The notes beneath the pieces were generated by a model. It was given only the letters and a program-made list of their open reading frames with translations, was not told the DNA's origin and did no database searches. Positions 3,201-64,000 of a DNA stretch of 64,000 nt are shown in pieces (the stretch's first letter is position 1; every line of letters starts with the position of its first letter). Made by a program: the position numbers and the translations under genes. The DNA comes from Mytilus trossulus (Eukaryota), in the NCBI RefSeq assembly GCF_036588685.1, contig NC_086378.1, forward strand, positions 43,152,001 through 43,216,000. The letters are read 5' to 3'.

Positions 3201-6200
3201 ATGAATAATGTGAAACAAGAAAACAAGAAAACAAACAGCCAGAAGAAAAGATGCATCTTTGTTGTTAAGAAAGTGATATATAATTTTGAAACAAATTATT
3301 GTGTTTTATTTCAATTTATAAAGCAATATTCAAGGACAGAAATGTATAAAAAAAAGTCCAGTTGGCATGATATCAATGTTTTTTTCTCTAAAATCCTTAA
3401 AGTTGATTGCTTTCTTTTTATACAATGGTGTATTTTGTAATAAAATGCTGGCATCTTTCTCCATTAATTAATTATACAGTAACACCTGTTCTTCCAGATT
3501 GTAAATAAATGAATGCACTAGATATCAAACAATTTGATTGTGTCTTTAAAACTTCTCATTTAGAGCCAACTTCAGTTTTCTATATATTGTCAGGTTTATC
3601 TTCTAAGTATCAAAAAGAAATCTTAGAAAAAATGTTCACAATGTTGTTTTATTTATAATTACACCTTATGTAAGAATCCGGGGTTATGATTGGTTGATAG
3701 CCAGTATATTTTTCACCAATTTACTGTTATCAAATGAATATCGTTCATTTTTAACGCCGCTGGGGTATTTGCTAAAAGGATATGCCTTTTTTACCCTCTC
3801 TGCTGTGGTATTTGCCAAAAAATACTCTATCCGACTGGACGCTTGTAAAATCACGATCATCAATGCGTTTAAGTACATTAACAGATATATCATGTTCTTG
3901 AGGGGTATTTGTGAAAAATACCAGTCTTGAGAATGAATTTCCTTTGCGAAATTTAACATTCTCTCGACTGGTATTTTTCGCAAATACCCCTCCTTAACAT
4001 GATATATCTGTTCACGAAAACTGCACTAGATCCGAACAAATTAATAAATCTGTATTTCAGGTTTATCTTCCAACAACTAAATATCTGATAGCACAAGTAA
4101 CTTTCAAGAACAGCAATCTGGTGTCTGTAATTGGCTGGTTAAAAAGGTAATTTTTGCTATATTTCCTCCTCATCTCTAATGTATTTCTTTTCATATTACC
4201 AACTTTTGACTGACTTTATGTTAATTTTTGCCAGGTTACCTACAACATCATGGTACTCTGTCAATCAGGAGCAGTCATATTGGTGTAATTTGAGGGGACA
4301 TTTTACTATTTTCCAATGAGTTTGTCGTGTAAAGAAAACTTGACGCAGTATATTTTCCCAAAGAATTTTACAGATTAAAAGCTTGATTTTACTTCTTTAT
4401 GTTGCTCTAACCTAACTTGGTACCAGGAGTTCGTAGGTAACCTGTTGAAAGAATAAAAACTTCGGATTCAACAGTTTATTGTTATATATTTAAAGGCCAT
4501 TTCTCCACTTTTGATGATTGTATCAAGTTATTCTTATCCTTAATTATTTGCTTTATTGCAGAGCATTAGAAGGCCATTTCCCTAATTTTGATGACTGCCC
4601 TCCATGGATGTATGCAGCAGCTCTATTGTCACTTTGTATCAACAGGTATCTAATTGCTACACAGATTTTCTGTTAGCTGGTTATGTTCTTTTCTTGTGTT
4701 CATTATTTGGAATTGTTCCGACTATTAGGATTTAAAAGCTTTTAAAAATTAGAATCATTAACACTTTTTTCTTTTCATATTTTCTTTAAGACATCTTAAA
4801 TTACAATCCATCAAAATTTGTAGTTTTCTTTGTTATTATTATACCTTCTCATTTACATTGCTTCATAAAACAATGCTATTGGGTAATACTGTATACATAA
4901 TGGCTTTACAGGGGATTCCATTGAGTGTGTAGCCAAAGGTTATATCTTTGGTTAGCTTGCTTGTTAGCTTAACCGTGAAGTCATTGCTAGGTTAGATTAA
5001 CTACCCTATTTAAGAATAGACTTGTCCGACAGAAAACCAATCAATATGTCTGTTGGACTATGCTACTTCAAAAGGAGGCTAGTGTACCTGACCTAATAAT
5101 GACTTCACGGTTCAGCTAACAAGCAAGCTAACCAAAGATATCACCTTTTGGCTACACACTCAATGGAATCCGCTGTAAGTGATATAATAAGTTTGATTTT
5201 TTTCAAATGCAAGGAATGACAAATAACTCTAAAAATTACAATGTGCAAAAAAAGAATCACACTTTTCCTCACCTATAAATTACTGATTGAGTCTCGATTT
5301 CATTTGACCATGATATTTTGGATAGTTTGTAAGTTGTGAAAGTTTGTGATTAACATTTAAGAAGAATCAGTAATGTTAAGTCAATGATATTTGGTATGCT
5401 GTTGTATTAGCATCTGCCTGTCTTATTTCTGTTGATATTATTTGGTCCAAGTCCCTCACTCAGAGCTCAGTCATTGTTTTTTGACTACATGTATCAACTT
5501 TTTCATTAGTTTAAACATATTTATTTATAGTGGATTGGGAAACAAGTTTTGCAACTTATATTAATCCCTTTCCACTTTGCGGGTGCGAGTGCTGCCTTGT
5601 AGCAGCATTAGCCTACTCTTTTTCGAAATCTACAAGGGTGTCTTTAACGTGCAAGAGATATGGCTCTCTCTTTTAACACGGGTCAGCCATTTATCGTCCC
5701 CGTCCGAGGGACTATCATCGTTTCCTCGAGACCATACTGGCAAATGGTGTCAAGGGAGAGCCGATAATTGAGTTCCTGAAATTTTCATCCCAAACGGGAA
5801 TCGAACCAGGAACCTTTGTGTTAGTAGTCTGATGCACTAACCACTACACCACGGCTCTCTAACTTTTTCATTGATTACATGTTAAAGGTATAAAGTATAA
5901 AGATAAGAAGATGTGGAATGATTGCTAATGAGAAAACTATCCACCTGATTCCAAAGCACATGGATGTAATCAACTATAGGTCACTAGACACAAAAATGTA
6001 AAACATGTGGTCAGTTAAAGGGAAATGGTAATGATAGGTCAATGATATTCGGTATGCAATTGTATTAGCATTACCTCATCTCATTTTATTCAAGTTTATT
6101 TTTCACATATTTTCAGGCATTTCTATTCAATTTTGAATAAAAGATATTATTAATTTCAATTGTGAATGTAAATTTTCTGATGAATTTTTCACTTAGGGAC

Positions 6201-9200
6201 CAAGTAGAAGATAAGATTTCACAATTCTTGTCACAGAAAACAAACAAAAACAGCTTGGTAAGTATTTATTTCACAAAGGCAAAACATTGGAATGGTATTC
6301 CTGTGGAAACAATGTCATAGAGAAGTTGTACAATCCTATATGTTTGTCAGGACCTCAAAATTTGACAGACCAAATTGTTAAATACTGATTTTTTGGGTGT
6401 AATATCAATTCTCACTGACCTTTATTTTCACAACTTGTAAGTGTATATTAAAATTTCATGATTAAGTGATTGGAGTATTCTGTTCTGAACGAATTTTTTG
6501 ATACAATTAACTGCAGCAGAAAACATGATATGGAATAATCTATCTTTATACAAATAGTATTTGCAGTGCAAGAGTTGCCACTGGTAGATATGGTTCCTAT
6601 GGCAAACATTCCTTGCAGTAAGAGAAAATTTTATAAACAAAACAAATGACATGTATTGGATGAATAATTAAGTCAAACTAACAATGATTGTCAGAGTCTG
6701 GGTTTCCGCTGGCGGTCGCCATTTTCGCAATTTGCGAAAAAATAATAATTGTGGCTATTAAAATTCGTCATTGGCGAAAGAAATATATATGACGATTTAT
6801 TTTCAGCCATCTTGTTTATTTACTTTTTTCGGGTTTCTCTGACTTTACCATGTTTACCGATCAGACAATACTCGGATTTCACCTTGAACTCATTAAGATT
6901 TTGACAGAAAATCAATAATCAGCTGATTGCATTTATAGCTATCGACATCAAAGGACTAACTAATAAAGGTGTTGATTGTATGATATGACAAAATGATATG
7001 GTTAAATGGCTTCTTTTGCATGTCATAAAAGGGATTTATTTACCGCTTTGCGACGCACGTGTTTGAAGCAAAGTTTACGCTTCCTCTACTTCTTTCGAAA
7101 AGAAAATTGTTGTTATGACGAAAAATGTTCAAAAGCTAGAAAGGTCGCTGATTTAAAACTTTATCATTTAACTTTCATATAGATCATTGAGTGGGTACTT
7201 CAAAGTCGTTTCAGTTACACACGTGTTTCAAGCATATAGTTTTACTTATTTACGATGGTCTAGAAAAGAAAACTGTCATTATGAAGAAATATATTCAAGT
7301 GGTTGTCATGAGAGTTACCCTTCAATGTAATGACTACACCTTACACGAGGGATCAATTCCAAGTGATAAGATTCTTCGTTTTGCTGTAAAAATCACTTCT
7401 TGTTTAGCGGAAAAGGGGGGGGGGGGAATAAAATTTTATTAGAAAAATATATTTGGCGAAAAAAATAATAAAGTGGCGAAAAATATATTGTTTTGGCTAA
7501 AGAGGTGGCGAAAAAAATAATTGACCCAGGGGAAACCCTGGTCAGAGTGTGTGTGTATACAGATGTCTTATGGTCTGAAATTTTCTGTCTCACATATATG
7601 TCCATTGTTCTTGACAACTTGATTTTACTTCAGTGTCACTGCATGACAAAACTTAAATAGCAAATTTATTGTGTTTTTTGTCACATGATGTTGTGAGTAA
7701 TAGGATAACCATATAAGTTCAATTTATACATTTCCACCATTTGATTAAATTTTCATGATGTAATGATTTCTTTGTAAGAAGGACAAATTTGAAATTTACT
7801 GAAAAGTTGAAAGGTTTGCACCTTTACACAAATAAATTTAAAACAGCCCTGCTATAATCTATTTCAGATTTTGAAGGAATTAGTTGTGATATTGATTGCA
7901 CATACAGCATATCAGCACTTGGTAAGTATTGTATTAGACAATTATCTTACTTTTTATCTGACAGTAATTTGACATTAGGCTTCATGTATATTAACATTAG
8001 GAAATATAAAGGTTGAGCAGCAGCATACAATTTTATAAGAACTGTTTTGATTTCAATTAATGATCACTTGTTATTAATTTGTCTCAAGGTATCTCAAGAC
8101 CAGCAGTAAATATTGGTAGATGATATTTAGGAGGTGAACAAAGATATGTTGTATAAATCAAACTATCAAAGATGTGCCATCAACACCATATTCTCTTAAA
8201 GTTATTACAACATTAGATCAGTGATGATGTTCCTGACTTGTCACATAGATATGCAGTTTTTCACTAAACTAGAACACATTTTTATTTAGGGGCCAGCTGA
8301 GGCCCACCTTTGGTTGTTGGATTTTGTCACTGCATTGAAGACCCATGGGTGGCCTTCGGCTGTTATCTGCTCTTTGGTCAGGTTGTTGTCTCTTTGATAT
8401 ATACCTCATTGCCATTCTAAATTTTATTTCAAAGATACTTTTTTTTCTAAATGTTTGTGAGTATTCAAAATTGCTACAAAATTGTTGGCATTAAAGTAAC
8501 ACTTACATTGATAGTTTACTGTCTTAAAACATTTGGTTTTGACAACTCTTTTTAGAAGGAGAATGTGGGACTTGAAAATATTATTCTTGTACCAGAATAA
8601 TGCTTTAGTTTCTCATCCAATTTCCTTCAGTTTATGTTGCAAATTTTAAGTTATGAAAACCTTGGGTGAGTTCAGTGATTATTAGTATATACTGGTTACC
8701 AATTTTTTAAACTTCTTATGAACGTTTTATGAATTCTTAAACAGGCTTTTTAGGTTGCTATTTTGTAACAACAGAACTAAAATAATGGTATTTTTCAGGA
8801 TGTACCAAGATTCCACAAAGTTTTAGATGTTATTCAAAAGTCTTCTCCAGATATAATACTCACTCTTCCTAACGAGAGTATAATAAAACAGATGTGCTCA
8901 TCTTCAACACAGTCAATAATTCCATATAGGTTGCTCATGTAAGCTTTTATTTTTAAACATAGAAATTTCACAAATAACAAATTCATACTATAGGTCAATA
9001 TTGTAGGTTCATGTGTTATCTGCAGAATATTAACCATTTGGTTTATATTTTTAGATAGTTTTTCATTCATTTAGGAATAAGTTACTGTATTTTGACTGTC
9101 ATGCTCAAATTGGAGAACATTTAACATATAACTATGAATGATCTTTTCTCATTTCTTGTGTATAGGAATAGACAGTGTACATGAAAAAAAAAAGAAACGA

Positions 9201-14168: not shown

Positions 14169-14947
14169 TTGACTTATTTGTAAGTCTTTGCAAAACATGA
14201 ACTTTCTAATGTTGATATGCTTCAATCATAAGTTCTGTTAAAAATTTTCAAGGGCAATAACTTCCTTTATCTTCCTGGTCGTGATAACTTATATCACTGC
14301 TGAAAATTTTGCAACATAGTGTATATCACAGTGTATGCAAAACAAAAACTAAAAACTAAAAAAAAACTGAACTCCGAGGAAAGTCCCAAATCGAATAGCA
14401 AAATCAAAAGCTCAAACACTTTTAACGAACGGACAACAACTTTCATATTCCTGATTGGTACAGACATTTTTTTATGTAGTAAGTGGTGGACAGTTTGCAT
14501 AAAATTCCATTATATTGACAACGATGTGTGAACATAACAAATAGACGTACTAGGTACAAATTTCAAACGTATGTATACAGCAGCCAACATTGTGTTATAA
14601 CACAAAAAAGTACAGATACACGCCAAATGGATATCACCCAAAACTGACTAAACAGGAAAAGTGATATTCATAAAGACAAATTAAAGAATACTATAACACG
14701 TTAATAAGATGATAAACAGCATCTCTCAAGGACTGATTCTTTTTAAATTCAACAATTCAATTATTGATTTTGGTCAGTTTGACTTATTTGGTGATTTTAA
14801 CGTGCTGAACATGTAGACAGTTTAACATTTTCTTTTTATCTATGTATTATATTTACTTCAACATAACATTGGCACATTGAGTGCCACGATATCTGAGTAG
14901 GAGTTCGAATCCCGGCAAGGGAAGACAGACCTAACATTGTTAGGCTA

Positions 14948-15146: not shown

Positions 15147-15326
15147 GAAAAATCTTAGTAGCACTTGTAAGCCTATTATTTTACGAAGAAAATTATCATC
15201 AAATGACTTCATACAAGAGTTGTAAACTTTGTATAAAAGTGACACCTAACATCCACGTATTCCAACATCAATCCGAATTCCGATAGCAAACAATCTTATT
15301 CGGAAGACTCCGTATACATACTATAA

Positions 15327-16101
15327 CTGCGAGTACTCTCAAATCGTATTTTCTTGTTAATTCGACCTGTTGACACTGTTTATAAGGCTTTTTTGTTATT
15401 TTTTATTTATATGGATCTTGTCTGTACACCAGCTTTGATTATCTGTAATATCTTCAATTTTTCACTTATTCTTACAACATTTGTATAAACTTCAAGATTA
15501 TAAAAAAACGTTTTTTTTCTAAAGTGAACATTGATTGGTTAAATATTTCTCAGTGATGTCCTGTGTTCGAATTTGTTTGTTAGCTTTTTGGTCATAAATG
15601 TTTGTCTCTAATATTTAATTAACTGTGCATTTGTATTCAGATATCGCAGATCAAATTTATTCGTTCATTGTGTAATCATACGTTTTATTGATTGAGTTAA
15701 GTCTGCCAATTGATATTTTATCGTATGTTTTTCTATGTTGTGATGTTATGCTATTGTTTCAGAAAAAGGGAGAGGGTTTGGATCCACTAAAAGGTTTAAT
15801 CCCGCTGCAAATGTTTGCACCTGTCCTAAGTCAGGAATCTGATGTACAGTAGTTGTCGTTTGTTTATGTAATATATACGTGTTTCTCGTTTCTCGTTTTG
15901 TTTATATAGATTAGACCGTTGGTTTTCCCGTTTGAATGGTTTTACACTAGTAATTTTGGGGCCCTTTATAGCTTGTTGTTCGGTGTGAGCCAAGGCTCCG
16001 TGTTGAAGGCCGTACTTTAACCTATAATGGTTTACTTTTTAAATTGTTATTTGGATGGAGAGTTGTCTCATTGGCACTCACACCACATCTTCCTATATCT
16101 A
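15327..16101 (+). mobile_element. Interspersed non-coding retro-like repeat carrying a twister-like motif
   Basis: Boundaries defined by the interrupted MITE (tataa on both sides); its 3' ~350 bp is nearly identical to 24605-24953. Confidence 0.75.
15759..15842 (+). ncRNA. Twister-like ribozyme motif, type P5 (family B)
   Basis: TCAGA..GGGA GAGGG..T^AA TCCC GC TGCAAA/TTTGCA CCTG TCCTAAGT CAGG..TCTGA; stems P2-P5 and both pseudoknots can form. Confidence 0.65.
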
Positions 16102-17905
16102 TATAAGTATTTTATTGTAATTATATTACAAAATAATGATCACATGATGCTAATATTACTAGACTTGCAATTGCTTTAAATCAATCCATTGGGATTGATT
16201 TAAAGCAATTGCAAGTAATGGATTGATTTAAAGCAATTACAAGTCTAGTTATACTAGCATCATGTGATTAATATTTTGTAATATAATTTCAATAAAATAC
16301 TTATAGTATGTATACGGAGTCTTCCGAATAAGATTGATTGCTATCGGAATTCGGATAGATGTTGGAATACGTGGATGTTAGGTGTCACTTTTATATAAAA
16401 TAAATGTTGTAGTTTTGGAAAGCTAACAGATTACTCTTTCAAATTAATGCAATGTTAGTATTATGCAACAATTATGTAAATATAATGTTAACTGTGTCAA
16501 AAATATTTTTCACCAAATTTCCACTTTTATATGAAATTAGCTTCTGCATAGTTATCTCTTGATGGTTGATTTTATTATATGTTGTTCCTATGGCCATTTT
16601 CTACAAAAGGGTGTCTCAGATTTCAGATAGAATGTATAGAACAAATTTGACACCTATTTAAACATTATCTTTATATGTTGTTAGGATGTTTACACTAATT
16701 AGAGATTTATGAGAGAATGGAATACCATAGAGACAATCAATAATGATTGCATAATAAAAATATTGCATTCATTAAAAAGATTAATCTTTTATCTATCTAT
16801 ATATACCTCTTTTATTATTTTCTATGCATTCATAATACAGTTAAAGCATTTCAAAGGTTAGTGATTGGAAGTAAAATAATCTTTGTATTGTGCTACCTTA
16901 TCTTAAAACGACGATTTTAAACAATTTTAGATGATTGTATATTAACTTACAAACTGGACTTGATTCATCTCCGTTATAAGCGTTTGCAAGTCATTCTGAG
17001 TATTATAAGGCGAAAGTCATACTTATTCAAACAAAACTTGACATGTATGAGTTAGTGTGTATTAATTTCTGTTTGTAAATTATGACTATCAACCAAGTTG
17101 AGCGACATAATTGTAAAAAAAAGAAATAATGGGTAACATGAAATGCACGGGGCAAAAATAATTTAAAAATCAAGATCTACTTAAATTGAAATCAAAGTTG
17201 CAACACTATTCCTTTTTGAAGTGTTAAAGATTAAAAATTTCAAGGTTGATTTATGTTTTTAAACTGAGCATGACATACCTTTCTATTTATATACGAAATT
17301 GTACACTGCACACTCCAGTTCCCTTGTTTGGATAGAGTTATGTAATTAGATATATTTTTGGGGGTATTTTATTGTACTGGAGTGTCGTTAATATTTGACA
17401 ATACATTTGAACATACATTAAGCCAGATTTGTCCTCATTTATCTTTTCAATACGTACAGATATCTAGAATTTCCTCGAATGATGTTAGTTGGTTTGGTCA
17501 GTGCAAACAAAAGAAGCTTAAAGAATTGTGATCGCACATTGTACTTTTGTCCCTGTTTAACTAAGATTTTATCGCATATAGAACTTTAGCTCCCGTTCTT
17601 TAGTTTAACATCACATTGAAGATTTAATCCATATAATCATACTCACATTCACTAGGTCGTTTATTTTGTTTGCTGTAAATGTTACAAAAAAATTCTCACA
17701 CCAACAAAAACAAACCTTGTATAAAAGGTTTTTGTTAACTGTTCCCAGTCTTTTCTAGAGAAAAATTTGAATTTCAATCTCAACTGTAACTTAGCTATTT
17801 TCAAAATAAATTACGAATAGCCGATATGGTCCCTCTATATGGTAATTGAATCAATAAGTGAGAATGTGATAAGTTCATTTTGTTATGGTTCGTAATTCAA
17901 TTTAT

Positions 17906-20247: not shown

Positions 20248-20840
20248 ATAAAAGAGGGACGAAAGATACCAAAGGGACAGTCAAACTCATAAATCTAAAT
20301 AAACTGACAACACCATGGCTAAAAATGAAAAAAGACAAACAGACAAACAATATTACACATGACACGACATAGAAAACTCAAGAATAAACAACACGAACCC
20401 AACCAAAAACTAGGGGTGATCTCGGGTGCTCCGGAAGGGTAAGCAGATCCTGCTCCACATGTGGCACCCGTCTTGTTGCTTATGTGATTACAAATCCAGT
20501 AAATAGTCTAATTCGGTAGGTCACATTCATGAAAGGGAAGGGGACTGTAGTTACGACGTAAGGAACATATCCGATATCATTTGTGAAACGGTTATTCCAT
20601 AAAGGTCAACCAACTCGTGATGGCGTCCGTAAAATTTACGAAGGGATGATTTCAACTTCACCATTTGGAACTCTTGGTTTAATAGCTTCCTTGTGAGCAG
20701 CAACCCTCTATCAAGAAAATCATGATGGGAAATGCAAGCACGGGAATATCGTATCAATTGGGAGATATATACCCCGTATGCAGGTGCTGCTGGAATGTTG
20801 CTACTTAGAAATGGAAAGTTCACAATTGGAAAGCTGAAAA
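20248..20840 (-). mobile_element. Penelope-like retroelement 3' fragment (RT C-terminal region + 3' UTR)
   Basis: ORF 20551..20823 NFPFLSSNIPAAPAYGVYISQLIRYSRAC...KLLNQ...LRKFYGRHHELV; similar 3' ends at 34175-34215, 36448-36655 and 39850-40190. Confidence 0.75.
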
Positions 20841-21615
20841 TCTGCGAGTAAACGTTCTTAAGTTTGTATTGAAAGCATCATATCTCCAATTGCAAGTCCT
20901 TTCCTAAAAAATATATGTTGGTGAAACATATATTGTCGTTCTTTTGAACTAGGTTGTATTCAGCGTAGAAAATATCATTGATTTTTTTCAATATGCACTT
21001 TGGCAAATACATACACAAAATCTTTTTTTTTATCAGTATATTGAACAAATAATAAATGTGGTCCTGTGAAATTCGGAGCATGATTTTATTTAAAATCAGG
21101 TAAATATCGAAAGAAATTCAGATGATTTGGGTGTATGAAGCTGTGAAAAAGCACCACTTCATTCCAAAAGGGGAAAATGCGAAATTGCAATCTTAGACAT
21201 TTTGACTTTATGCAAGTTTGAGGGTATTCTTGTTCATTTGTATAATTTAATTCTTGTAATATTTGCAATCAGTCGAAGATTTTAAAGCATGAAATTCAAC
21301 ACTTCAGAGGTTTATTATTTATCCATCGTTTCACTATGCAGTTAAAAGTAGCAATAATAATAATAATAAAAAAAGATGAAAATTTTAGACCTGCTTTTTA
21401 TAGTTGTAATCTCTGTCCTGTCTATTTATATTTTACTCTATTCGGACCTGTCTTAGTTTTTCCTGACTTTTGTTTACACAAAATGAAAACCTATTATTAT
21501 GCCTGTATTCTATGCTCTGTACAAGGCTTTTCGAGAAACACGATATTAAATTTGTTGAAAATTAATTATTTTGAATGCAATTTCTTAGTTAATCTGGGTT
21601 TCGGTAAATTAAATT

Positions 21616-21990
21616 TCTAGTGCAGAAAAATTGGTACCGTTAATGTTATTACTACCACAGGGTCGATGCCTCTGCTGGTGGACTGTTAGTCCCCGAGGGT
21701 ATCACCAGCCCAGTAGCCAGTACTTCGGTACTGGCATGAAAATACGGATTGTTTGTTGCTGTTACAAATTGTTAGAAATTATTATAAATTAAGGAATGTA
21801 TCTCCTCATGCAAAGCTCTGATTCCTTTTACGGATTTGGCTATACTTTTTGGACCTTTTGGATTATAGCTCTTCATCTTTTATATAAACTTTGGATTTCA
21901 AATATTTTGGCCACGAGCATCACAGAAGAGACTTGTTTTGTCGAAATGCGCATCTGGTGCAGAAAAATTGGTACCGTTAATTTTATTGTA
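21616..21990 (+). mobile_element. Terminally redundant ~337-nt hammerhead-bearing monomer (retrozyme/Penelope LTR-like); core mutated
   Basis: tct(a/g)gtgcagaaaaattggtaccgttaat occurs at 21616 and 21953; hammerhead at 21917-21960 has CAGAAGA instead of CTGAAGA. Confidence 0.7.
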
Positions 21991-23091
21991 TTGCATCAAT
22001 TGTACCAGTTCCGAAGGACTGGCTACTGGGTTACTAGTACTCTCTGGAACTCACTGAGAACCTGTAGTGGTTACGTACACATGAATTCAACGTGAACATC
22101 TGAAGGTTGACATAATATGGCATGTACATTTCAAACATGCAGACACGTCTGCTTAAACAAGAAGCTACAGAAATTTTATTGAAAAAAAAAATGTCATTCA
22201 CACACACACAATCGAGTGCTTCTGAGAAAACAAATCAGTTACGATTTTTGTGAATAAAAGAAAAAAGTAGATCCTTGCTTGACGAATTTCGTACCGTGAT
22301 TCCAATTGTGAAATGAACAGACAATTCGTTTTATCATCACCAGTCATAAGATACTGACATAATCAGTTAGTACTTACAGATCGAAGGAAAATATGTACAA
22401 ACTATGTACAATCATATATGTCATCTAATAGAGGTAATAAGATGAATTATATTGTTAATACGATATTAATACTTTGAAAGATACCTTAAAGAAAAGGCCT
22501 AAAATATATCCCCCTTTACCCTATCTCCCGATTAAACATCTACCCATACTCTTCTTAAATGATCATCTATCCCCTATATTGTTCGATATTTTTTATATCC
22601 GGTAGATCAAACATCGGAATTCTCAGAAAATCTGATAGCTAATTTTAAACAATTTATGATTATATAATATAAAAGTTTATCACAAATTATGTGTATCACA
22701 AATTATGTGCATATGATTTAAATTTCAAGGATATTTCAAATTTTTTAACACAGACACAGAAATGAAAAGTAAGTAGAGATTTAAGAATCATTTAACACAA
22801 TTATGTGTTTGTGTTAACAAAAGAACATAGAACTCTTTAATTGTGAACATTTTGGATAAATTTAACCGAATATATTGAGTGCATTCGATCTTCCTCGTCG
22901 TTTACTAATATTGTTTTCTATCAAATTTGTGTTCGTTTTTTGGTAAAAATGTGAAAATTAATTTAAATGTTTAAATCAAAGTAACACAATGAAATTACAT
23001 GCTATTTGAAAGAAAACAAATTGGCCTTTCCTTTTTCATAAAGGTTTTCGATGAAATTATCAAAATAAGTGTGCCCTGTAAAGAATATCAG

Positions 23092-23226
23092 GGTTGAGTT
23101 CAATATCGTAGCAGCAACGTGGTACGTAGCTGCCATCAAAATCTATGTAGCAACTAGTCTATAGCTACAGTTCAATAGTCAAAATCTACTTAGTACCACG
23201 TAGCTGCTACGCTATTGAACTCAACC
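23092..23226. mobile_element. Small MITE, 34-bp TIR, CAG TSD (PIF/Harbinger-like)
   Basis: ggttgagttcaata(t/g)cgtagcagc(a/t)acgtggtac is mirrored; CAG at 23089-23091 and 23227-23229. Confidence 0.8.
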
Positions 23227-24511
23227 CAGGTGTTTGTATGGTGCTATTGGGGTCAGAAAAATTCGATGATCGTCAACGCCAAAAGGGATGTTTAACTGAT
23301 ATAGTTTCTCTCGGTATGTATATATTACACACAGTATTTATAGTTATTCAACTGCAAAATAAAAATAAAAACTACATACGATATCTAGTGCAGTTTATAA
23401 GATATCTGTAAAAGTACATAATATATCGTATTTACTTTATACGTGCTTATATAACTTTTATAAATTTCATACAAGCTGATATGATTGATTTCTCTATAAT
23501 TTGCATATTTTTGCTTCGATGATTATTCGCTGATAATGCCAATACCACTGGACTAGTGGTTTAAGAATAATCGCATCAGTTCGCAATTATCATGCGCGAA
23601 ATCCATCACGAAAGGTTCCACTTTTCCCTTTCATTTGCCTGATTGGTTTTTTGCAGAAGCACACGAATGTGTTTGTGAATGAAATATTTGTCACAGTTTC
23701 AATAATAATTCTGTAGGTTTTTGTTTATGCAGACTTGCATGCATGCATGGTATGAGAAGTAAAACAGAACTAAAATTGACTGAAAATCAGATCAAGTAGG
23801 GAATTGCATTCAAAATAATTGACTTTCTTCGATTCAAATATCACGTCCGTCATAAAAAAAAAACCTGTACGAAACATATTCATTATGGTTACACTAAAAA
23901 TAAAATTAGCAAATTAAGAGCGCCACCCGTTCGATAATAATTTGTAGAACTACCATATCATTATAACGTGGCGTTGGATAAACGCCAATGGTACATATAT
24001 CACTAGAGATAAGAAAAACAACTGCTTAGATCGACCTTTGTCTTTCAATATTTAATATCCCTGGTCCGGGTTGAAAATTACTGACATGATCTTACAAAAT
24101 CATGATAAGCGATAGAAAACAAACAGGAAGGTAACATCTATTAAATCATTTGAAAAAGTGAAATGATTTCTGATAACCTACAGACTCGATGCCCAAATCA
24201 GAATAAATTACAGTGTCTGCTTACTCGGGGCTTTCCTAAAATAAACGTGATCGTTAAATATAAGTGTGATATTGAAACAGATTATCCATCCGATTACAAG
24301 CAAGTAAGTTAAAGATTTTAAAGCTGCTGGTTTGTTTTCTTCTCATAAACAGACAAATCATGAAAAGTGGTTTTTTAAACAATGTAAGCTGATTCAGATC
24401 GAGCATACAAGATGCAGATCCGGGATTTTGAAAAAGGGGGAAACAACTGGACTAGGCAACTTATGTGTGAGACATATATACTTGTTTGGCTTTATAACTA
24501 TTTTGATTTGA

Positions 24512-24555
24512 GCGTCACTGATGAGTTTTATGTAGACGAAACGCGCGTCTGGCGT
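24512..24555 (+). ncRNA. Minimal type I hammerhead ribozyme motif (intact core)
   Basis: GCGTCA CTGATGA GTTT tatgt AGAC GAA ACGCGCGT C^TGGCGT; GUC triplet, palindromic stem III. Confidence 0.8.
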
Positions 24556-24604
24556 ATTTAATTATAAGCCTGGTACATTTGATAACTAATTATAAAGCCT
24601 ATGC

Positions 24605-24953
24605 ATTGTTTCAGAAAAAGGGAGAAGGTTTGGGCCCATTAAAACGTTTAATCCCGCTGCAAATGTTTGCACCTGTCCTGAGTCAGGAATCTGATGTACA
24701 GTAGTTGTCGTTTGTTTATGTAATATATACGTGTTTCTCGTTTCTCGTTTGGTTATATAGATTAGACCGTTGGTTTTCCCGTTTGAATGGTTTTACACTA
24801 GTTATTTTGGGGCCCTTTATAGCTTGTTGTTCGGTGTGAGCCAAGGCTCCGTGTTGAAGGCCGTACTTTAACCTATAATGGTTTAATTTTTGAATTGTTG
24901 TTTGGATGGAGAGTTGTCTCATTGGCACTCACACCACATCTTCCTATATCTAT
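24605..24953 (+). mobile_element. Second copy of twister-bearing repeat family B
   Basis: Near identity to 15753-16101. Confidence 0.85.
24611..24694 (+). ncRNA. Twister-like ribozyme motif, type P5 (family B; L4 A->G variant)
   Basis: TCAGA..GGGA GAAGG..T^AA TCCC GC TGCA..TGCA CCTG TCCTGAGT CAGG..TCTGA. Confidence 0.6.
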
Positions 24954-27900
24954 TTACCATATATGTTGCTCCATACGGTTAAAAGATATAATTTATCATA
25001 ACCTAACTAAGATTTTTAGAAACGGTTAAATGAAACATTATACATCTTATTTTATTGAAAAGATATCTCAATAAGTTTCTAAGTTAATTTATTCAAATTA
25101 TGATAAATCTCAATTAGTTGATAACATAGAAAAGTACCGTGACACGTCTTATAGTAATCCTTGCATTTATATATCACCAGCAATCTATTTTTGTTGCAGA
25201 GAAATTGATATAAAATACAATAAAATGTAATAGAAAACAAATATGAAAAACAGTTCATTTTCACAAAAGAGACAGTATATTTAATTGTGAAATTTGACAC
25301 TATTTAAACTAACTAGGCGAGACGACATTCGATAATACATGTTTAATAAATTTTGCTATTATTTTCTTATTTTTGATTTCTTTTACAGTGATATATTTTT
25401 TTCCTTTTTTTTTTCTTTTAAAGTTTTGCGGTAATAGTTTTCTACTTCCTTAATTAGAAAGTTACAAACTAGAATATTATAGTATTCATTACCTATAGCT
25501 TCACAACGAGCAGCAAGAATTATTTAAAATGAGCGTAATAATGTGACATCGTCAAACATACTTTTTGGAGAGTTACTACTAGTATTGATGCCCATTTCAG
25601 ATTAATTTACATTTCACTAAATGATTCCACATTATCTCAATGCATTATGTTATGTGCATCAAGTTAGTTCTAGAACACCAACAGAAAGTTATTGCAGTAT
25701 GCTTATTATTCCAAAAAACTCAAACTGAATACTACTATAAACGCTCTATGTTGGTATCTGGAAGTATTTTATGAATCCAATTTGTCTACAAATTGAAAAT
25801 AATGTATCACAATTGAATCGCTATCAAATATTATATAATATTTTGTCTTATTAGTTTAATTCTAATAACAGTTTAATAGTTTAATATTGAATGAGTATTT
25901 TGTTATTGAGTTTATGCTATATTTGATGTGTTTTTTTTCAGTTTAGGACATCATAACTTTTAAGACTATCCTAAGACACCTATGCATATATCCAAACTTT
26001 AGGACCAAATTTAGAATATGTTTTGTTTTAGGAGACTATCGTTAACCTGACTAAGGACTAAGAGATGTCCGAAGACCATCCTAAGACATGTCCTAGTCCT
26101 AGGATAGCTTCGTTGACACGGCCCAGTCTGGTATCATTCGCATTTTAACTGTAAGTTAAATTGTAAATTGTAAATAGTCCGAGTTCACCATAAAAAAAAA
26201 CTATTTGATATTGTCTGCTTCAAACTCAATAAGATCGTGCAAAAGCGCAAGTCTACTTTTTTCTAAATTATCCAAATTTGAAAAAAACCTCTGAACTGTA
26301 AAGTAATACTGGATAAATGACTTTAGAAGACATTTCTATTCGACATTCAATAGATACGCTATTTCTTCGAAATTTCTGTAACAAACTGTATATTTTTTTT
26401 GTTCCCTTATATTTAATCTAGAATATATAAGATTTTATTTAATAACAGCCGCATCATTGCTTAAGCGGCACACTTGCTTGCATCGTTGTATCCTGCGTGA
26501 ATAATCTTCTTGTTATCGCACCATACAGTTTGATGAATCCTTTTATTTTATTGTGTTGAGATTTTTACTTGTATACTGTTAATGCATGTAGAAAAGTCCT
26601 TTATGAGGAAAGCTAAAGACGTGATGTATAAAAGTTCAATATCCGATGGTAAAAGAGTTACAAGAAACTGATATTTTATTTGATTATAGTCTTTTTCGTA
26701 TTCATGTATTACATAAATGAATGCAGAATATTAAAAAATCAAGGATATGTGATGCATAAATCTTTATTTATTTTTGAATATGAGACTTTTAACATTAATG
26801 TAATAAATCAAAGATAAGATAAAAGTAACGTTTGAATAGAATACGTATGCTCTAACCTCAATTGTACTAGTAGATAAATCAAACTTTCCCCGTCCTTCGC
26901 ATTGACAGTATGACAAAGATTATGTTAGTAAAAATTTATAAAAAGATAAATAATAATGATTTTACATAAAGGCAAAACAATTTAAGAACATACTGACGTG
27001 ACATTATTATGTCTTCTGAGTCGTCCTTTTTCTGTTATAAAACTTTTTGTTTGCGATGAGATGGGCCGGTTAAATGTTGTCTTAAACAGAATGATAGAGT
27101 ACTTTCACGACAGAAACAAAACTTGTATGCATGTATACTGATAAAGCTTTCGTAAGTATATTCAGTGGCCTGGAGAAATAACTTTTTCAGAGCAAACTAG
27201 TGATTATCTGAAAATACACACTCGGTATCATGTAATATCCCACATAATTGACAATCATAACGAAAGGATAATGACAATCACATGTCACGTTCAAATTCAT
27301 AGAAAACCAAATATGCAATCGTTATACTTGGAATTGTGCAACTTAAGAGCAAAATAATACACAAACGCTCTATTTGTTCAACTTCTTAGCAAGAAAAACA
27401 AAGCTCTCATACTCGGCAATTGGACGCTAAACTTTGGGGAAGTTTTGATATCCGATCATTTCGGGTTGGAATTTGAATCATGTGACGAAGTTAGAGTACT
27501 TTTTTTTTTAATTTTGTCATTGATACATTGATTTCGAACGAAGCTAAATTCTAAATTTCCCTTCGTTTGCAAAATCTTTTCTGCTATTTCACATTTTCTT
27601 CCACAGATATATATATAAATATATAAATGATCTACAATGTCATGTCAATTATTGACACATAGACATTGACACACCAAGAGGTGTAGTGATTGAATACTAG
27701 TAACTGTATAGCACATTGACAATTAAAGACTTTTGGACGATGTAACAGGACTAATTCCATTGCATAGTAGATACTTAGCCAGTCGTAAGCAGCAGTTGAG
27801 TAAGAGGAGTACTCATTTTGCTCATTCGCCTTATTTGTAACACAGAGGTCCCGGGTGGTTCGAGTCCCTGAAGAGACCTTTTGATAAGAGGTATAATTTC

Positions 27901-29186
27901 CGGATTCGGATTCGAGACGATCTACCAGTTTAGATTCAAAACGAATACTAAAAGAATTAAATCTAAAATATTTAAAGATGATAGATTTGAAAATACCTCA
28001 ATAAGAATAAATATAAACTGCCCCATGATTCTGACTGTTTTATTTCGCCCCGTCGTATTGACATGAAAAATATTGTGATCTCAATGCTCTTAACTTTGTA
28101 CTTATATTTTGTCTATTAAACATTTTGATTCTAGCGTCACCGATAGACGAAACGTGTGTCTGGTGTAAAAAACGTGAAAGACAGTTATCTATTAGGAGTT
28201 TATTGATATCTTGTAAGATAATGTGTATTTCAATAAGTATATGGACCAAGACAAAAACAACACTTCTTTCCCAAAGGTTCGAGAGACTTGTTCAAATGTA
28301 TATGAATAATCTTAATATTGTTCTGGTTTTCTCAAACAGAATGATAGAAAGATTCAAATGTGGACGGAGGTTAAAACAGGCTAACAGGACAGTTCGCTTA
28401 GTATTCAACGTTTTTATTTTGTTTACATGAATCATAAGTATCGCAATTTTGTGTATTTAAAAAAAATTAAAAAAAATAATGTAGAAATTATTGTTATTCT
28501 CTAAGATACATTATCATCCTTCAGGATTTTACTTTCTCGGGCGTAATACTTATATTACTTCATTTCATTTCGTCTTTTCAAACGTTAGAAAATATATAAT
28601 TAAGTTGACAGAATTATAAAATGCATTTTTCATAACAATGCACTTATTAGATCTTGAAAATTGTAAACATTCTTATACAAACAATTCAGAGTATTTAGGA
28701 ATTATTTTTGCCAAAGGACAACTAATGTACAAAATACACTTTATATTGAATAAATCATTTATCCACGATGTTTTTCATGCTTAATGGCTACGAATTATGC
28801 AGTAAACTGACCTTGTAAAGTCAACAGTACTTTAGAATTCACATATACTACATTGGAAAAAAATATCCAACAGTTGGAACTAAATGACAAATCTTTTTTA
28901 GAATGGTTGAACCGGTTGTTATATTAGTGATATTTTGATAATCAACTTACATTTGACTAAAATAAATGTTGCATTGGTGATATGCTGACGAACACAAGTT
29001 AGGTCATTTCCCGAAAAAAACCACTAACGTAACAAAATAGTTGTAGAAAGTGTTAAGGTGCTTGTATACTCATAGAGGAAGCTTTTACCTAAAACAAGAG
29101 ACTTCAGCCTATTAACTACTGTTTATATCTTTCGAAAATATACATAACGACCAATAATAATTCAGTAAAACAAATTATTCTACATT

Positions 29187-29277
29187 GGCTGGAGGTATAG
29201 GGGGAGGGTTGAGATCTCACAAACATGTTTAACCCCGCCGCATTTTTGCGCCTGTCCCAAGTCAGGAGCCTCTGGCC
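29187..29277 (+). ncRNA. Twister-like ribozyme motif, type P5 (family A)
   Basis: GGCTGGAGGT ata GGGG GAGGG...T^AA CCCC GC CGCA tttt TGCG CCTG TCCCAAGT CAGG a GCCTCTGGCC; 10-bp P5, P2, P3, P4 and the UCCCAAG loop. Confidence 0.72.
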
Positions 29278-29514
29278 TTTGTTAGTCTTGTATTATTTTA
29301 ATTTTAGTTTCTTGTGTACAATTTGGAAATTAGTATGGCGTTCATTATCACTGAACTAGTATATATTTGTTTAGGGGCCAGCTGAAGGACGCCTCCGTGT
29401 GCGGGAATTTCTCGCTACATTGAAGACCTGTTGGTGACCTTCTGCTGTTGTTTTTTTCTATGGTCGGGTTGTTGTCTCTTTGACACATTCCCCATTTCCA
29501 TTCTCAATTTTATT
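29187..29514 (+). mobile_element. Interspersed repeat family A that begins with a twister-like motif
   Basis: GC-richer island in AT-rich DNA; partial copies at 8268-8428 and 31718-31808. Confidence 0.75.
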
Positions 29515-31140: not shown

Positions 31141-32289
31141 CGCATAAATAGCTTGAAGCTTCATTTCAATATTGAAATAAGCAGCAGACGTAAAGTACAA
31201 TATGATATTACAGTATGTGACCATTGAGTCAATGAGCAAACCAACAAAGTTGGATATACGTTATGACATTATTGAGAACGAAGACTGTTGAATCTGTGTA
31301 CAAATCTGTGTAAAATATAAATGGTACTACAGTACAAAAAAGTTAATATGATCAAATGACCATACACTATCAAAACCTGGGAACTGAAGTGTGTAGTATA
31401 CAATTTCTAATTATAAAAAGCTATTTCATGTTCAGTTAAAAAATTACGACATAATTCAAGCGTGAAAATGTCATCATAATTCAATCATATCGCATAAAAA
31501 TCTACTCAAAAGGATGTTTTAAGAAGGTAAAAAGGTGATAGATTTTTACAAGAACGTTCATTTTGTCTTGCAAGAAGTGGGTTATTTTTTTTCAAGTCTA
31601 ACACTCTGTTCCAAATGATAAACATGGAGAATCTGCAGATTATAAATTGAACTGAAATTAGCATGGGCATGATTTATGCATAGCTTTAATTGATTTTTCA
31701 CATCAAACTAAAATATTCAAAGATTCATTGGTGGCCTTCGGCTGTTGTCTGCTCTGTGGTCGGGTTGTTGTCGCTTTGACACATTCACCATTTCCTTTCT
31801 CAATTTTAAAGATACCTTACATTTGACTTTCATGTTATGCCTCTTTCAGTATTTTAGCTCAACGTGTATTTATCATCCGTCAGCTGTCTTCAATTTTGAT
31901 TTTTGGTTGTAAATAACAATTTAGAAATTTGATTCAAAATACAACCAGTAGTAGTTTACCATAGTTATGATTTCAAACATTTATTTAGAAGAAATCAAAC
32001 CAAGAAAAATAAAAAAAAATAAAAAATAAAAAGACAGCCTGAGTTTATCAAACAAACTGCATACGAGGTAGACGGATGCGTTGACGGAATAGACATCTCC
32101 TGCTATGCATAACATGCCACACGGACACACCGTATTGGTCAATAAATTTGTTATAGTGACCGGAAAAACTCATGAAGTGTCAATTCCAGTCCTTTTTCCT
32201 CATAACACTGTTTAGGCTTTCAATGAAGTTCATCTAGGGTGAGCCTGCACGAGCGTAACGTATTAATTGGGATATGTAAACGACGAACA

Positions 32290-34060: not shown

Positions 34061-37000
34061 TTCAACTGTGAGTATTTTGTTAATAAGTTATAAGTACATA
34101 TTATTGAACTAAAAATATTATAAGGTAATAATTTAATTTAAGCAACACTGGTTTTTGCCGGTTTCTGAATATTTATGAGTTTGACTGTCCTTCTGGTATC
34201 TTTCGTCCCTCTTTTCCAAACGTAAAAAACACTCCTGTTTGGCTTTTAACACTTAAGCGTATTTATTGATGTTAATATCAGAAATATATCCTGAATAGTT
34301 CGTTTTTTTTAATTTTACGTCAGTATTGATAAATTTCGATAAATTTTTCACTGACTATATATTTTTAATATTTTATTACTTATATGATTTCAATTCGTCT
34401 AAATAATTATGCAGAATTTGCCCTATAGAATGTCTTCCTTTAAAAGTTATATACACCAACCGAAGCTTTATAGTAAAATGTAATGACGCTAAAAAAAAAA
34501 TCTTGCATAGGGTCCGGGAACACAGTTATCGTAAGTAAAGTCCCTAGTTAGGACAGTGTATTACTTGCAATTTCTTTTTCTTACCCCTTTCAAATTTATT
34601 TCTTCATATGTTATGCCTCTAGTAGCAAGAAGGGGATATAATTATCCATACTTTAAGTTAGACCTGATGAAGTTTTCTATGATTTTGATAATAATATTTA
34701 TCCCTAAAGTAGTATATCACACTGTAAAAAGATAATTGAGAAAGCGCCATAGCGATTTTTCGCATTTTCGTTTATTGTCAAAAAGAAATATACTACAAAA
34801 TAACTGTGTTCTCATAGTGTGAAAAGAAATCGCTTATCCTGTCCATGCACCTGGTCTAATTTTTGTAGGAGTTCATTCGATTCCTATTGTTTAAATCCCA
34901 TTTATATTTCACATACCTGAACCTATGAACTATTAACTGAACATTAACTTAGCTTGATTTTTTTTATGACCATGCGTATAAAGTTTTTTTATTTTGGTTC
35001 ACTCAACCCAATTGTACATAAAAACTTAATAAAAGAAATCGTCACAAAAACCACACCGTAAAATAGACCACGTCAACCACCCACACCTGACTCCTCTAAA
35101 AAATGGGACATTAATTTGAAAAGTAAGGTCAAAACGTGTTCACTACTACAGAAAGCTACAGCTAAGCGGCAGCATTTATTAGATCATCAGGATACTGCTG
35201 TTTAGTGGGGAAAAGAAATAAGACTCCTCACATCTTCCATAGAGTCTCATCAAACATTTGATTAAATCTTCTGTATTTTTGTGAGGCCATATAATTTTTA
35301 TAATCATCAGACCATTTGAAAAAAGGAATCCTGATTACTGAACAAGAGAGTCCATCACACTTTTAGCAATTCCAACGCTGTTCGACTTACGACATAGAAA
35401 GGAAAAAACAACTGATCTTAATGTTTTCTGAAAGAATTAATGTTAGGACATATCAACCCAACTGCTTTGACTTCAGAGTACACTAAAAATACATACACAA
35501 ATCAAGAAGAAAGCTGAGCCATTGACAAAGAAAATTGCAGTTTCGGACAATCGGTATCACCAGAATCCGAAGTCATCGTTTGTTTTAAACGTCATCCTTG
35601 GACAATTAAACCACTCTAAAAAGTACCTTCCTGTTATCCTAATAATCGAATAAATCTTTAAAAACTGAAAATAAATCAAGTCCGAAAAAGAGCACAGAAC
35701 AAAAAACAGTTAAGAGAGAAGTAAGTTTGATACATTTTATATTAGTCAAGGGTAATTTGATGTGTGCATGCACTTATTAAGATGGTTGAAGTTTTACCGA
35801 AATATTAGAAAATTCCATGAAGTGTGGGAATTTTTAAAAGCCATAATCATCATTGCATAACTCATTACATATACTTAAAAAAATATCTTTAGACTAATCT
35901 CTATATGATGTGTTTATGCAACAAAGATGACATCAACAACGCACGGTGCATAGCGATGAATGTAACCTTGTTCAAATGCGTGGTTGTACTTTAAATGTTT
36001 AAACAACGCAATTCAATTCTTTGGTATGACTAAATTTGCTATACACAAGAAACCGTTTATAAATTTCATTTTTAAATTCAATCTTTGGTTGTTCACAACA
36101 AAGATAACTTTATAAGTTGATTTTTTTTTATAAATTAAATTACTTTTACTCGAACAGTCTGTGAAACGTGAATTATCTCATTGTTTATGTTTGCGTCATT
36201 TGTTTTGAGTATTGGATTTTAAAACATTCATTGTATTTTATATCATTCATTCATTTATAGTTGTAAACGTTTGTGAACTTGCGTCGGATAACTGTTTTTA
36301 TTAACACAAATGAATAAATCAGATGAGATATTTTGAAGCCAAGGGACAACTACAGCGGAACATTATAAATCAGGACGAAAAAAATTAGTTGGTATTGTCC
36401 AGAGAGATCAAGTCCTATTATATTAATGAAAAATTTCTTGATTGAAATGAGAGGCGAATTATACCAAAGGAATATTTAAACTAAGAAGTCGAAGTAAAGC
36501 TTCAAAGTGCCATTGCATTGACCAAAACGGAAAAAAACGACCAAAAGACATTCAACAGTCAGCAAAGCACAACATAGAAAACTAAAAACTGAGCAACACA
36601 AACACTACCAAAATAACCGGGGTGATGTCATGTGCTGTGGAAGGGTAAGCGGATTCAAAATGTGACATCCGTAGTGTTGCGCATGTTAATACAAATCAGG
36701 CGAAAGTTTAATTCGGTAATGTCATATTCGAGGAATAGAGAACAAGTATGATGATTTATACATAAATGGTAAGGTGGGTATCTGATCATCTGAATCATCG
36801 TCTTCAAAACCCTCCAATAAAGGAGTTCAAAGAAAGATATTTCAAGATATGAAGGCATAAATTAATTGTGACCACCATTATGTATCATTACAAAATAACA
36901 ACCAATGCTAACAGTTCTCAACGGATTTAATATTGAAACAGGACACCCTTCGATTACTGAAAGGGGTATCTTCAACTAATGCCAACACTTGAAAATTATA

Positions 37001-48490: not shown

Positions 48491-49168
48491 TGGTCACAAC
48501 TAAATGTGGTAGTGCACACACATGTGTTTTTGTGGTCACAACTAAATGTGACTGTCGTATAGTAGTGCACACACATGTGTTTCTGTGGTCACAACTAAAT
48601 GTGACTGTCGTATAGTAGTGCACACACATGTGTTTCTGTGGTCACAACTAAATGTGACTGTCGTATAGTAGTGCACATACATGTGTTTCTGTGGTCACAA
48701 CTAAATGGGACTGTCGTATAGTAGTGCACACACATGTGTTTCTGTGGTCACAACTAAATGTGACTGTCGTATAGTAGTGCACACACATGTGTTTCTCTGG
48801 TCACAACTAAATGTGACTGTCGTATAGTAGTGCACACACATGTGTTTCTGTGGTCACAACTAAATGTGACTGTCGTATAGTAGTGCACATACATGTGTTT
48901 CTGTGGTCACAACTAAATGGGACTGTCGTATAGTAGTGCACACACATGTGTTTCTGTGGTCACAACTAAATGTGACTGTCGTATAGTAGTGCACACACAT
49001 GTGTATCTGTGGTCACAACTAAGTGTGACTGTCGTATAGTAGTGCACACACATGTGTTTCTCTGGTCACAACTAAATGTGACTGTCGTATAGTAGTGCAC
49101 ACACATGTGTTTCTGTGGTCACAACTAAATGTGACTGTCGTATAGTAGTGCACACACATGTGTTTCTG
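48491..49168. repeat. 53-bp minisatellite, 12 full units plus one deleted unit
   Basis: Unit tggtcacaactaaatgtgactgtcgtatagtagtgcacacacatgtgtttctg, starting at 48533 with period 53. Confidence 0.97.
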
Positions 49169-49257
49169 TCTGTGTTTAAAAAAAAACAACTATTTTATTC
49201 AAATCTGAATCCGTTAGTTCAACACGTTGTTTTACTGATTGGGACTGATCTTTGAAC

Positions 49258-63010: not shown

Positions 63011-63578
63011 AATATGAGAGAAATTAACATTACAAAAAATCTTTAAAAAACAGTCTGGTTGTTTAGAAATGTTGTTAAAATCCTTTAAACTTATTTTCAT
63101 TACATATTTATTTTTATTATAAAACATGATAGAAGACCTGTACCGATATCAGTACTGGTTGTTTTGTGTTCACTTCCATGTCCAACAACAACCAAGCCTT
63201 CATGTATTTTTTCCAACACTCATCACAATAGTTTGTATCAAAATATGCATTTACATGTGACTCATAAATAAAGGCAACAGTAGTATACCGCTGTTCAAAA
63301 CTCGTAAATCTAGTGACAAAAACAAAATTGGGGTAACAAACTAAAACTGAGGGAAACGCATTAAATATAAAAGGAGAACTACGACACAACATTAAAATGT
63401 AACACACACAGAAACGGACTAAGCGTTAGACAAAATCCGATGAAAATAACAAATATAACACCAAAACCAAATATATGAATTTGGGATAGAACAATACCGT
63501 GACACGTCTTATAGTAATGTGAATTCTTACTCAAATATAAGAGAAAACAAACGACACAACGGAAACACAACGTTGAAA

Positions 63579-63907
63579 GTGAAAGTACTTTAATTCGTGG
63601 GTATCAATTTTCGTGGTTTGAGCTATATTTACATGTTCGTGTGTTTTTAAATCCGTAGATAAAGCCTTTAGAAACGAAGGTTACAAATAGTATGGATTGA
63701 AGGAAATTGCAAAGTAAACATTGACCCGTGTAAATCGTAGTTATAACAATAATTAACCCATGATAAAGTGATCAACAGATTAAAGACCACCAAAGGTCTT
63801 AATTAGGCCATAAACATTTTATTTCGTTGGACACTTAAATTCGTGGATAAAGTCATCCTCGAAAACCACGAAAATTGGTACCCCACGAATAAAAGTACTT
63901 TCACAGT
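63579..63907. mobile_element. Tc1/pogo-like MITE
   Basis: gtgaaagtacttt.attcgtggg..ccaattttcgtggttt is mirrored at 63862-63904 and ends cagta. Confidence 0.7.
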
Positions 63908-64000
63908 ATGATATAACAATGGCCATTTTCATGACTTGGTACAGGCCAATTTTAAAGATAAAAATGGTGGGTTGAACCTGTGGCGATCAGATTGAAATAG

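Follow-up and report, generated by a model that had tools for sequence, protein, structure and literature searches.

We analysed a stretch of 64,000 nucleotides (nt) from the mussel Mytilus trossulus (NCBI RefSeq assembly GCF_036588685.1, contig NC_086378.1, positions 43,152,001 to 43,216,000 of the forward strand). This whole stretch is hereafter the window, and coordinates are counted from its first letter unless a locus is named. It contains two families of short repeats, A and B, and the tail of a third family, C, at 20248. A previous sequence-only reading proposed that A and B are short non-coding RNAs whose 5' ends are made by a twister ribozyme, and that they are moved by the reverse transcriptase (RT) of the Penelope-like element (PLE) at 20248 by means of a common 3' motif. 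What was observed is largely real, but the parasite system proposed from it is not. Families A and B are almost certainly the tails of autonomous Naiad families, with their own endonuclease-RT (EN-RT) genes and tandem pseudo-long terminal repeats (pLTRs). The motif in their 3' untranslated region (3'UTR)/pLTR reads as a circularly permuted (P5-type) twister that probably cuts itself. Overall, we consider it fairly probable that A and B are autonomous Naiad tails with a P5-type twister that would cut the element RNA, likely only when two copies pair.

Families A and B and their reverse transcriptases

Family A is present in the window as a 5'-truncated tail at 29174..29512 (+). This copy is 97% identical to the family and covers the last 339 of about 648 nt of its 3'UTR/pLTR; longer copies extend 5' into the RT open reading frame (ORF). 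Family B has a 5'-truncated tail at 24600..24952 (+) and a longer one at 15324..16101 (+), and a long hairpin (16102-16305) lies directly 3' of the end of the latter. Each family was sampled in the 1.3-Gb genome as the best 30 of 40 scored genomic matches. All the sampled copies of A and B have a common fixed 3' end, and their 5' ends are staggered, reaching between about 10 and at least 1,500 nt farther than the window copies. An ORF was reached by 13 of the 30 A copies and 8 of the 30 B copies (L058 and L059, a duplicated pair with common flanks, were excluded from the extension count), and these ORFs translate as Penelope-like (Naiad) RTs. The suggested link of the repeats to Penelope-like RTs is thus correct, as RT ORFs lie upstream of A and B copies. 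Their description as short non-coding families is not, since the copies run into their own EN-RT genes of about 1000 amino acids (aa).

Full copies of A and B have the order GIY-YIG, CxC, DKA, RT, as read in translations. The same N-terminal GIY-YIG, CxC, DKA and RT order, 5' truncation and partial-tandem pLTRs characterize the published Naiads (PMC8557442). The family A frame is 1002 aa long (EN-CxC-DKA-RT) when UGA is read as selenocysteine (Sec), and family B has overlapping frames of 852 and 737 aa in two tandem copies. At four conserved cysteines, a UGA codon is retained in 19-23 of 25 5' copies of A and in 24-25 of 25 of B; the CxC motif of family B contains a fifth UGA. The stop codon is followed by SECIS_1 matches (E 0.0054 and 0.062, both below the gathering threshold). 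The mussel selenoprotein Naiad loci are L321:6008-9016 (-) and L322:985-3543 (+), with four conserved UGA and a SECIS. Hence, A and B read as selenoprotein Naiads in which Sec insertion is predicted. UGA at conserved cysteines together with a SECIS is also the arrangement of the selenoprotein elements Naiad_Scon and Naiad_Mmer (PMC8557442). Such Naiads were reported for clams and spiders, not mussels, in that paper.

The 3'UTR is repeated directly before the 5'UTR, as a tandem pLTR, in 11 of 25 A copies and 11 of 25 B copies, and 13 of these 22 upstream pLTRs contain a whole twister. In L116 and L140, which hold pLTRs of A and B, Rfam gave no hammerhead match. The RTs of A and B are 66% identical, those of A and C 42%, and A and B share 42-44% with the non-selenoprotein families, including C; Pfam barely recognizes the Naiad RTs found here. 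The 3' flanks of the insertions are A/T-rich and are not microsatellites, and the published mussel Naiads list no (TA)n preference.

The predicted twister and the palindromes in place of P1

Two exact core patterns matched the genome 12,314 and 6,575 times (about 19,000 in all), with no match in the reversed controls. We found six twister families: A, B, D, E1, E2 and F. Five of them have an RT upstream (A, B, D with its C-terminal part only, E1 and F); for E2, no RT was reached within 1.5-kb flanks. We also scanned metagenomes with an RT alignment, keeping 80 of 279 loci. A twister loop lies downstream of the RT in 11 of these 80, and many of the others end too early to judge. The same motif is present in at least 5 of 54 published Naiad consensi (Mgal, Bpla, Mphi, Scon and Mmer; by eye and by motif search, where line breaks may hide more), and family E1 reads as Naiad_Mgal in its RT thumb and twister when compared by eye. 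The loop-L4 motifs of A and B do not appear in the consensus file of PMC8557442, and the word twister does not occur in its text or supplement. A comparison of the twister pattern with viral contigs gave no match.

The window copy of family A carries the P5-permuted motif with an intact core at 29187..29277 (+), with a predicted cut at 29230/29231, a position inferred from known twisters. The shorter copy of family B has its twister at about 24606-24696, with a predicted cut at 24649/24650 and an altered loop L4 at 24680; the twister of the longer copy lies at about 15756-15844. The conserved nucleotides of L1 and L4, the stems P2 and P4 and the ends in P5 are present. Although the RTs share only about 42-80% identity and come from mussels and clams, the motif retains its post-cut adenines, GA-R-G strand and both pseudoknots throughout. 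Names of stems and positions follow PMC5408937.

We parsed 14 variants, the six families described here and eight metagenome Naiads, omitting three loci that repeat A, B or another variant. Parsing used anchored patterns, as MAFFT put the twister families out of register. Both pseudoknots are paired in all 14 variants. One T2 pair occurs in three forms (G-U in 3, A-U in 7 and C-G in 4), one T1 pair in two (C-G in 12 and U-A in 2), and the first P2 pair is kept in 12 of the 14, in five forms. The strands of P5 pair best inside their own family in five of the six families. Some points weigh against this fold. Several invariant pairs, among them the partner pairs in T1 and T2, were imposed by the search pattern; the length of P2 (3 or 4 pairs) was chosen for each family, and the variants are related to one another. 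In family F, all 21 parsed copies have a C-C mismatch beside the core. Rfam, at E values up to 1-5, found no twister in the window, the genome, four of our own loci or ten metagenome loci. The proposal that the repeats bear twisters is therefore supported by covariation for the fold and receives no support from Rfam.

The P1 hairpin is lacking, and a segment of 21-35 nt with two palindromes stands in its place. For this segment the predicted free energy is 0 to -4.1 kcal/mol for the monomer fold and -12.5 to -21.5 kcal/mol for the homodimer. One palindrome of 6-10 nt, 1-6 nt after the GA-R-G strand, is found in 14/14 variants with at least 11 different sequences; by chance, a palindrome was reached by 6-108 of 500 shuffles, depending on the variant. 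The second palindrome, which ends at the cut site, is found in 13/14. Within the window these palindromes lie at 29210-29219 and 29221-29230 (+) in family A, where two RNA copies are predicted to pair, and at 24631-24638 and 24642-24649 in the shorter copy of family B. Among the 100 matches listed, 22 rows belong to family B, and 21 of them have the palindrome, with three different centres shared by 12, 8 and 1 copies, which are counts of subfamilies rather than of independent events; one row is broken. The two-palindrome segment distinguishes the Naiad motif from known twisters, as do the 3-bp bulged P2 of several families and the absence of an Rfam score.

Pairing between two RNA copies is the simplest reading of these palindromes, because a hairpin needs no symmetric centre. 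Family-specific palindromes in place of P1 thus point to a pairing of two copies. That cutting itself would be gated by this pairing seems to us slightly better supported than the contrary.

The junction motif, hammerhead retrozymes and family C

The 3' ends quoted in the sequence-only reading are present, at 20267-20279 (-) in family C, 24915-24927 (+) in B and 29473-29485 (+) in A, 27 nt before the fixed end; the longer B tail has the motif at 16064-16076. This 13-letter motif is found in families A, B, C and D, 17-27 nt from the end, and is lacking in E1, E2 and F, i.e. in three of the six twister families. The window contains five exact and nine one-mismatch matches against 1.56 expected, an excess that is due to repeat copies. 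Families A, B and D share the motif by descent. Family C agrees with A, B and D at 10 of the 13 letters, a score that 128, 68 and 118 of 200 shuffles attained in the single comparisons and 24 of 400 in the joint one. We rejected the shared motif as a recognition signal, as the match of C to A, B and D is near chance and C is closer to F in another stretch (12/13). The end of one Chlamys consensus has the same letters, which we treated as chance.

A different motif lies just past the junction of tandem copies. It begins 22 nt after the fixed 3' end in family C and 23 nt after it in A and B, spacings that are uncertain by a few bases owing to runs of T; the A/B form of this 5' motif is more diverged than the C form. 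The exact 11-letter core of the motif occurs 11 times in the supplement of Craig et al., always at the 5' ends of Naiad consensi, from oysters to a fish. The motif is located at 21672-21698 (+) in the window and at L091:3777-3860, L107:1123-1214 and L134:1084-1175. The window site falls within a hammerhead retrozyme, a non-coding monomer of about 350 nt at 21616..21987 (+) with a 35-nt terminal redundancy and a type I hammerhead (core identified by eye; Rfam match in a sister family). In one retrozyme family, represented by 18 rows of which two are the window's own copy, 15 rows end 19-25 nt ahead of the motif. In a second family, the stops are mostly 19-25 nt before it in 22 of 28 rows. The remaining rows of both families run on in tandem, and for a third family the anchor gave one row. 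The junction motif is thus a likely candidate for the start signal of the RT. Since motif and spacing are common to retrozymes and Naiads, the idea of a non-coding passenger likely holds for the hammerhead monomers: they would be the true passengers of Naiad RTs. The earlier proposal that these monomers use such an RT is therefore likely right, with a signal other than the 3' motif.

The 3' portion of another hammerhead retrozyme lies at 24480..24590 (+), directly 5' of the family B tail, with an Rfam RF00163 match at 24512-24555 (E 0.00085, below gathering). More generally, retrozyme ends often abut inverted Naiad ends or tails (L077, L170, L185, L205 and L222; 24590/24600 in the window), which suggests common targets or machinery. 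By eye, the 3'UTR of family F contains a worn monomer resembling a hammerhead retrozyme upstream of the twister (L230, about 1540-1870, +). The window also has two pairs of inverted repeats, 17906-18261/21773-22128 and 18732-19226/28488-28971, of which one is partly retrozyme.

Family C is represented by a tail without twister at 20248..20856 (-), with the last ~100 RT codons (20551-20856) and the 3'UTR. It is a third Naiad: three of five retrieved copies of this family have open frames of 923-998 aa, and in frames of 980-998 aa a GIY-YIG endonuclease precedes the RT, with the CxC and DKA motifs also read in the translation. Pfam matches to PF01541 (E 0.035) and PF00078 (E 0.0004) are both below the cut-off. 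About 110 nt after the stop codon there is a second conserved 3'UTR motif of twister-less Naiads, bounded by a stem (20390..20470, -, in the window). This C-type motif has a family-specific palindrome of 8-10 nt in all but the commonest C variant (20455-20464 in the window copy). Consensi from oyster and ark shell contain it too, as do 8 of the 80 metagenome loci, with examples in L342, L344, L345, L348, L358, L362 and L376. The order of its stems resembles that of hepatitis delta virus (HDV) ribozymes, but the usual letters of J4/2 are lacking, covariation is slight and Rfam gives no match; we therefore assigned it to no class. In a tree built from 21 RT rows, of which 5 are unlabelled, every member of the selenoprotein clade has the twister (7/7), and in the other clade twister and C-type motif are intermingled. 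The tree requires three motif changes, two of them forced by well-supported branches; the root is not fixed. Twister and C-type motif thus look interchangeable, which hints at a second ribozyme, and the C-type motif is a possible candidate for it. Among the metagenome Naiads, L347:267-4190 (+) has a ubiquitin-specific protease domain (Pfam UCH, E 2e-35) at the end of its 1307-aa EN-RT ORF, and L351 is similar.

The many short ends scattered through the window, which had been read as further instances of the 3' motif, are real 5'-truncated tails of the same or sister families; the end at 34175 departs from the 13-letter pattern. The ends near 1710, 5905, 51965 and 53870 are of B/D type (tips at 1711-1733 -, 5896..5984 -, 51962-52014 - and 53798-53903 +). 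Those near 8385 and 31765 are of A type, the former in an old tail whose twister part is missing (8258..8426, +) and the latter in a tip (31728..31808, +). The end at 34175 is of the same type as 20248, i.e. C (tip at 34171..34213, +). We also identified a family F-type tail at 63264..63980 (-), with a worn twister remnant at about 63900-63980, a family E-type (Naiad_Mgal-like) tail at 14344..14715 (-), and further family E tips at 10069-10166 (-), 37456-37564 (-) and 60428-60533 (+). Other features of the window are a tandem array of a 53-bp unit (48403-49285), an RNase H fragment and a further LINE-like fragment (41100-41648, -, and 56835-57332, -), and two long exons of a host gene (54192-55151 and 57555-58712, +) with a PDC/Cache-like sensor domain (PF22673, E 4e-9).

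Possible mechanisms and relation to known systems

The observations can be arranged in the following way. A tandem or read-through transcript would carry two twisters. These would pair and cut out a unit-length RNA in which the junction between 3' end and 5'UTR is kept inside. The RT would bind the conserved motif just past the junction and start 22-23 nt upstream of it, in line with the internal initiation demonstrated for a Poseidon element (PMC11167929). Copying would then cross the twister site on a template that is either re-ligated, and thus circular, or still uncut. A circular template is a tentative suggestion: upstream pLTRs are of any length, which a circle explains, and so does read-through of tandem DNA. 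A fuller scheme, which we regard as possible but doubtful, would have a circular RNA of about 4 kb cut out and closed by the palindrome-dimer twister, and rolling reverse transcription from a fixed internal start would make the partial-tandem pLTRs. Twister-less Naiads would use a second palindrome-gated ribozyme, swapped repeatedly, and retrozymes would hijack the Naiad RT via its start signal.

Further evidence runs counter to dimer-gated cutting of the element RNA. We analysed 800 kb of unselected DNA, with 150 copies of the six twister families that have an intact 3' end and 5' ends estimated by BLAST. None of the 150 begins within 5 nt of the predicted cut and 42 run through it, and none of 22 upstream pLTRs starts within 5 nt of the cut site. 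The 5' ends of the copies are hence not set by the twister, as had been proposed, and the copied RNA was therefore intact at the twister, either uncut or re-joined. Family C thrives without a twister. The alignment fold left the A/B form of the 5' motif out of register with that of C and the retrozymes. A Poseidon element could insert in vitro without cleavage by its hammerhead (PMC11167929). P1 is dispensable in twisters, and flaws in P1 and P2 are tolerated (PMC5408937; PMC11662667); therefore, a lone copy might cut and pairing need not gate cleavage.

This last point leads to another explanation, that the twister cuts as a single copy. The palindromes would then serve otherwise, e.g. in bringing two templates onto a dimeric RT, cutting would trim or destabilize the mRNA, and only uncut multimers would be copied. 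The C-type motif of the twister-less Naiads is also palindromic, and what is conserved may therefore be the function of the palindrome. In Poseidon, the protein is a predicted dimer that takes unprocessed RNA in vitro (PMC11167929), and the 42 copies that cross the site also fit. However, the palindromes occupy the exact slot of P1 and the second one ends at the cut in nearly all variants. Moreover, free cutting would remove the last 160-390 nt of the template, and no copies were seen to stop at that point. We thus find cutting by single copies unlikely. A further reading, which we consider quite improbable, is that a fold derived from a twister has lost its cutting activity, or is a selfish passenger, and is retained as a structural element of the 3'UTR. 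In its favour are the nil Rfam scores, the absence of a cut-site signature in the 150 copies, the bulged or mismatched P2 of the short-type families, the suggestion of Craig et al. that hammerheads may simply parasitize PLEs (PMC8557442), and the swapping of the motif at least twice on the RT tree. Against it stands the conservation of the post-cut adenines, the GA-R-G strand and both pseudoknots across such divergent RTs in mussels and clams. The initial proposal of short non-coding twister RNAs moved by the RT at 20248 is largely refuted and very improbable. Most window copies are indeed short and the 13-letter motif does lie near the end of A, B, C and D, but five of the six twister families have their own RT upstream (with E2 not reached), the 5' ends vary gradually in position without falling on the cut, and the motif is lacking in three families and close to chance in its match to C.

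The predicted twister has the same core strands as the type-P1 twisters of Schistosoma (U-AA at the cut, L4 loop, GAGGG strand, P2, P3 and P4; Liu et al. 2021, PMC8501958), and its ends open in P5 as in type-P5 twisters (RF02684). It sits in the 3'UTR/pLTR of a PLE, whereas twisters have been described with non-LTR elements (PMC8501958; PMC7761336). The pLTRs of PLEs contain minimal hammerheads that are reported to act as dimers when they cleave (Cervera & de la Pena 2014; Lunse et al. 2017, via PMC7761336, PMC10085705, PMC6765202). The Naiad twister resembles them in the slot of the element, the weakened helix and the predicted pairing of two copies. It differs in that the hammerhead is a structurally unrelated class of ribozyme and the Naiad clade was reported to be hammerhead-less. 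Indeed, Naiads were reported without canonical hammerheads, with the suggestion that hammerheads may parasitize PLEs (Craig et al. 2021, PMC8557442). The Poseidon element PAc of Anolis (Frangieh et al. 2024, PMC11167929) has an internal RT start that needs downstream sequence and a ribozyme in the pLTR region, as proposed here; PAc has a C-terminal EN and a hammerhead, while the candidate Naiad start signal comes from sequence comparison.

The hammerhead monomers of the window are of the non-LTR retrozyme kind (350-390 bp, with circular RNA shown in mussel and a PLE origin proposed; Cervera & de la Pena 2020, PMC7229834), a kind to which A and B do not belong. Published retrozymes were linked to hammerhead-bearing PLEs, whereas the link here is to Naiads, through the 5' motif and the equal spacing of ends. 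A PLE origin of retrozymes is also discussed by Li et al. (2026, bioRxiv 10.64898/2026.07.22.740005), without mention of mussels or twister in the accessible part. Type-P1 twister candidates from a survey that included bivalves were tested in PMC11662667, whose data may bear on the present motif. We searched the literature for twister with Naiad, Penelope-like, Mytilus, bivalve or Schistosoma, and found no paper on Naiad twisters in a coverage that leaves out most subscription papers. The same was true of Naiad with hammerhead or retrozyme, PLE with circular RNA, and twister with palindrome and dimer, including the available part of PMC13725137. The supplement of PMC8501958 gave no match either.

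Craig et al. (2021) read the absence of hammerheads from the highly successful Naiads as meaning that pLTR ribozymes are dispensable or parasitic. A second class of ribozyme in the same slot, apparently with the same two-copy design, argues instead for a functional slot. In a single genome, some 19,000 exact matches to the core escape Rfam. The motif is a natural candidate for a dimer-gated twister, and the role of ribozymes in PLEs becomes testable with RNAs of 100 nt. The junction motif provides a precise candidate for the start signal of the RT and names the likely motor of mussel retrozymes.

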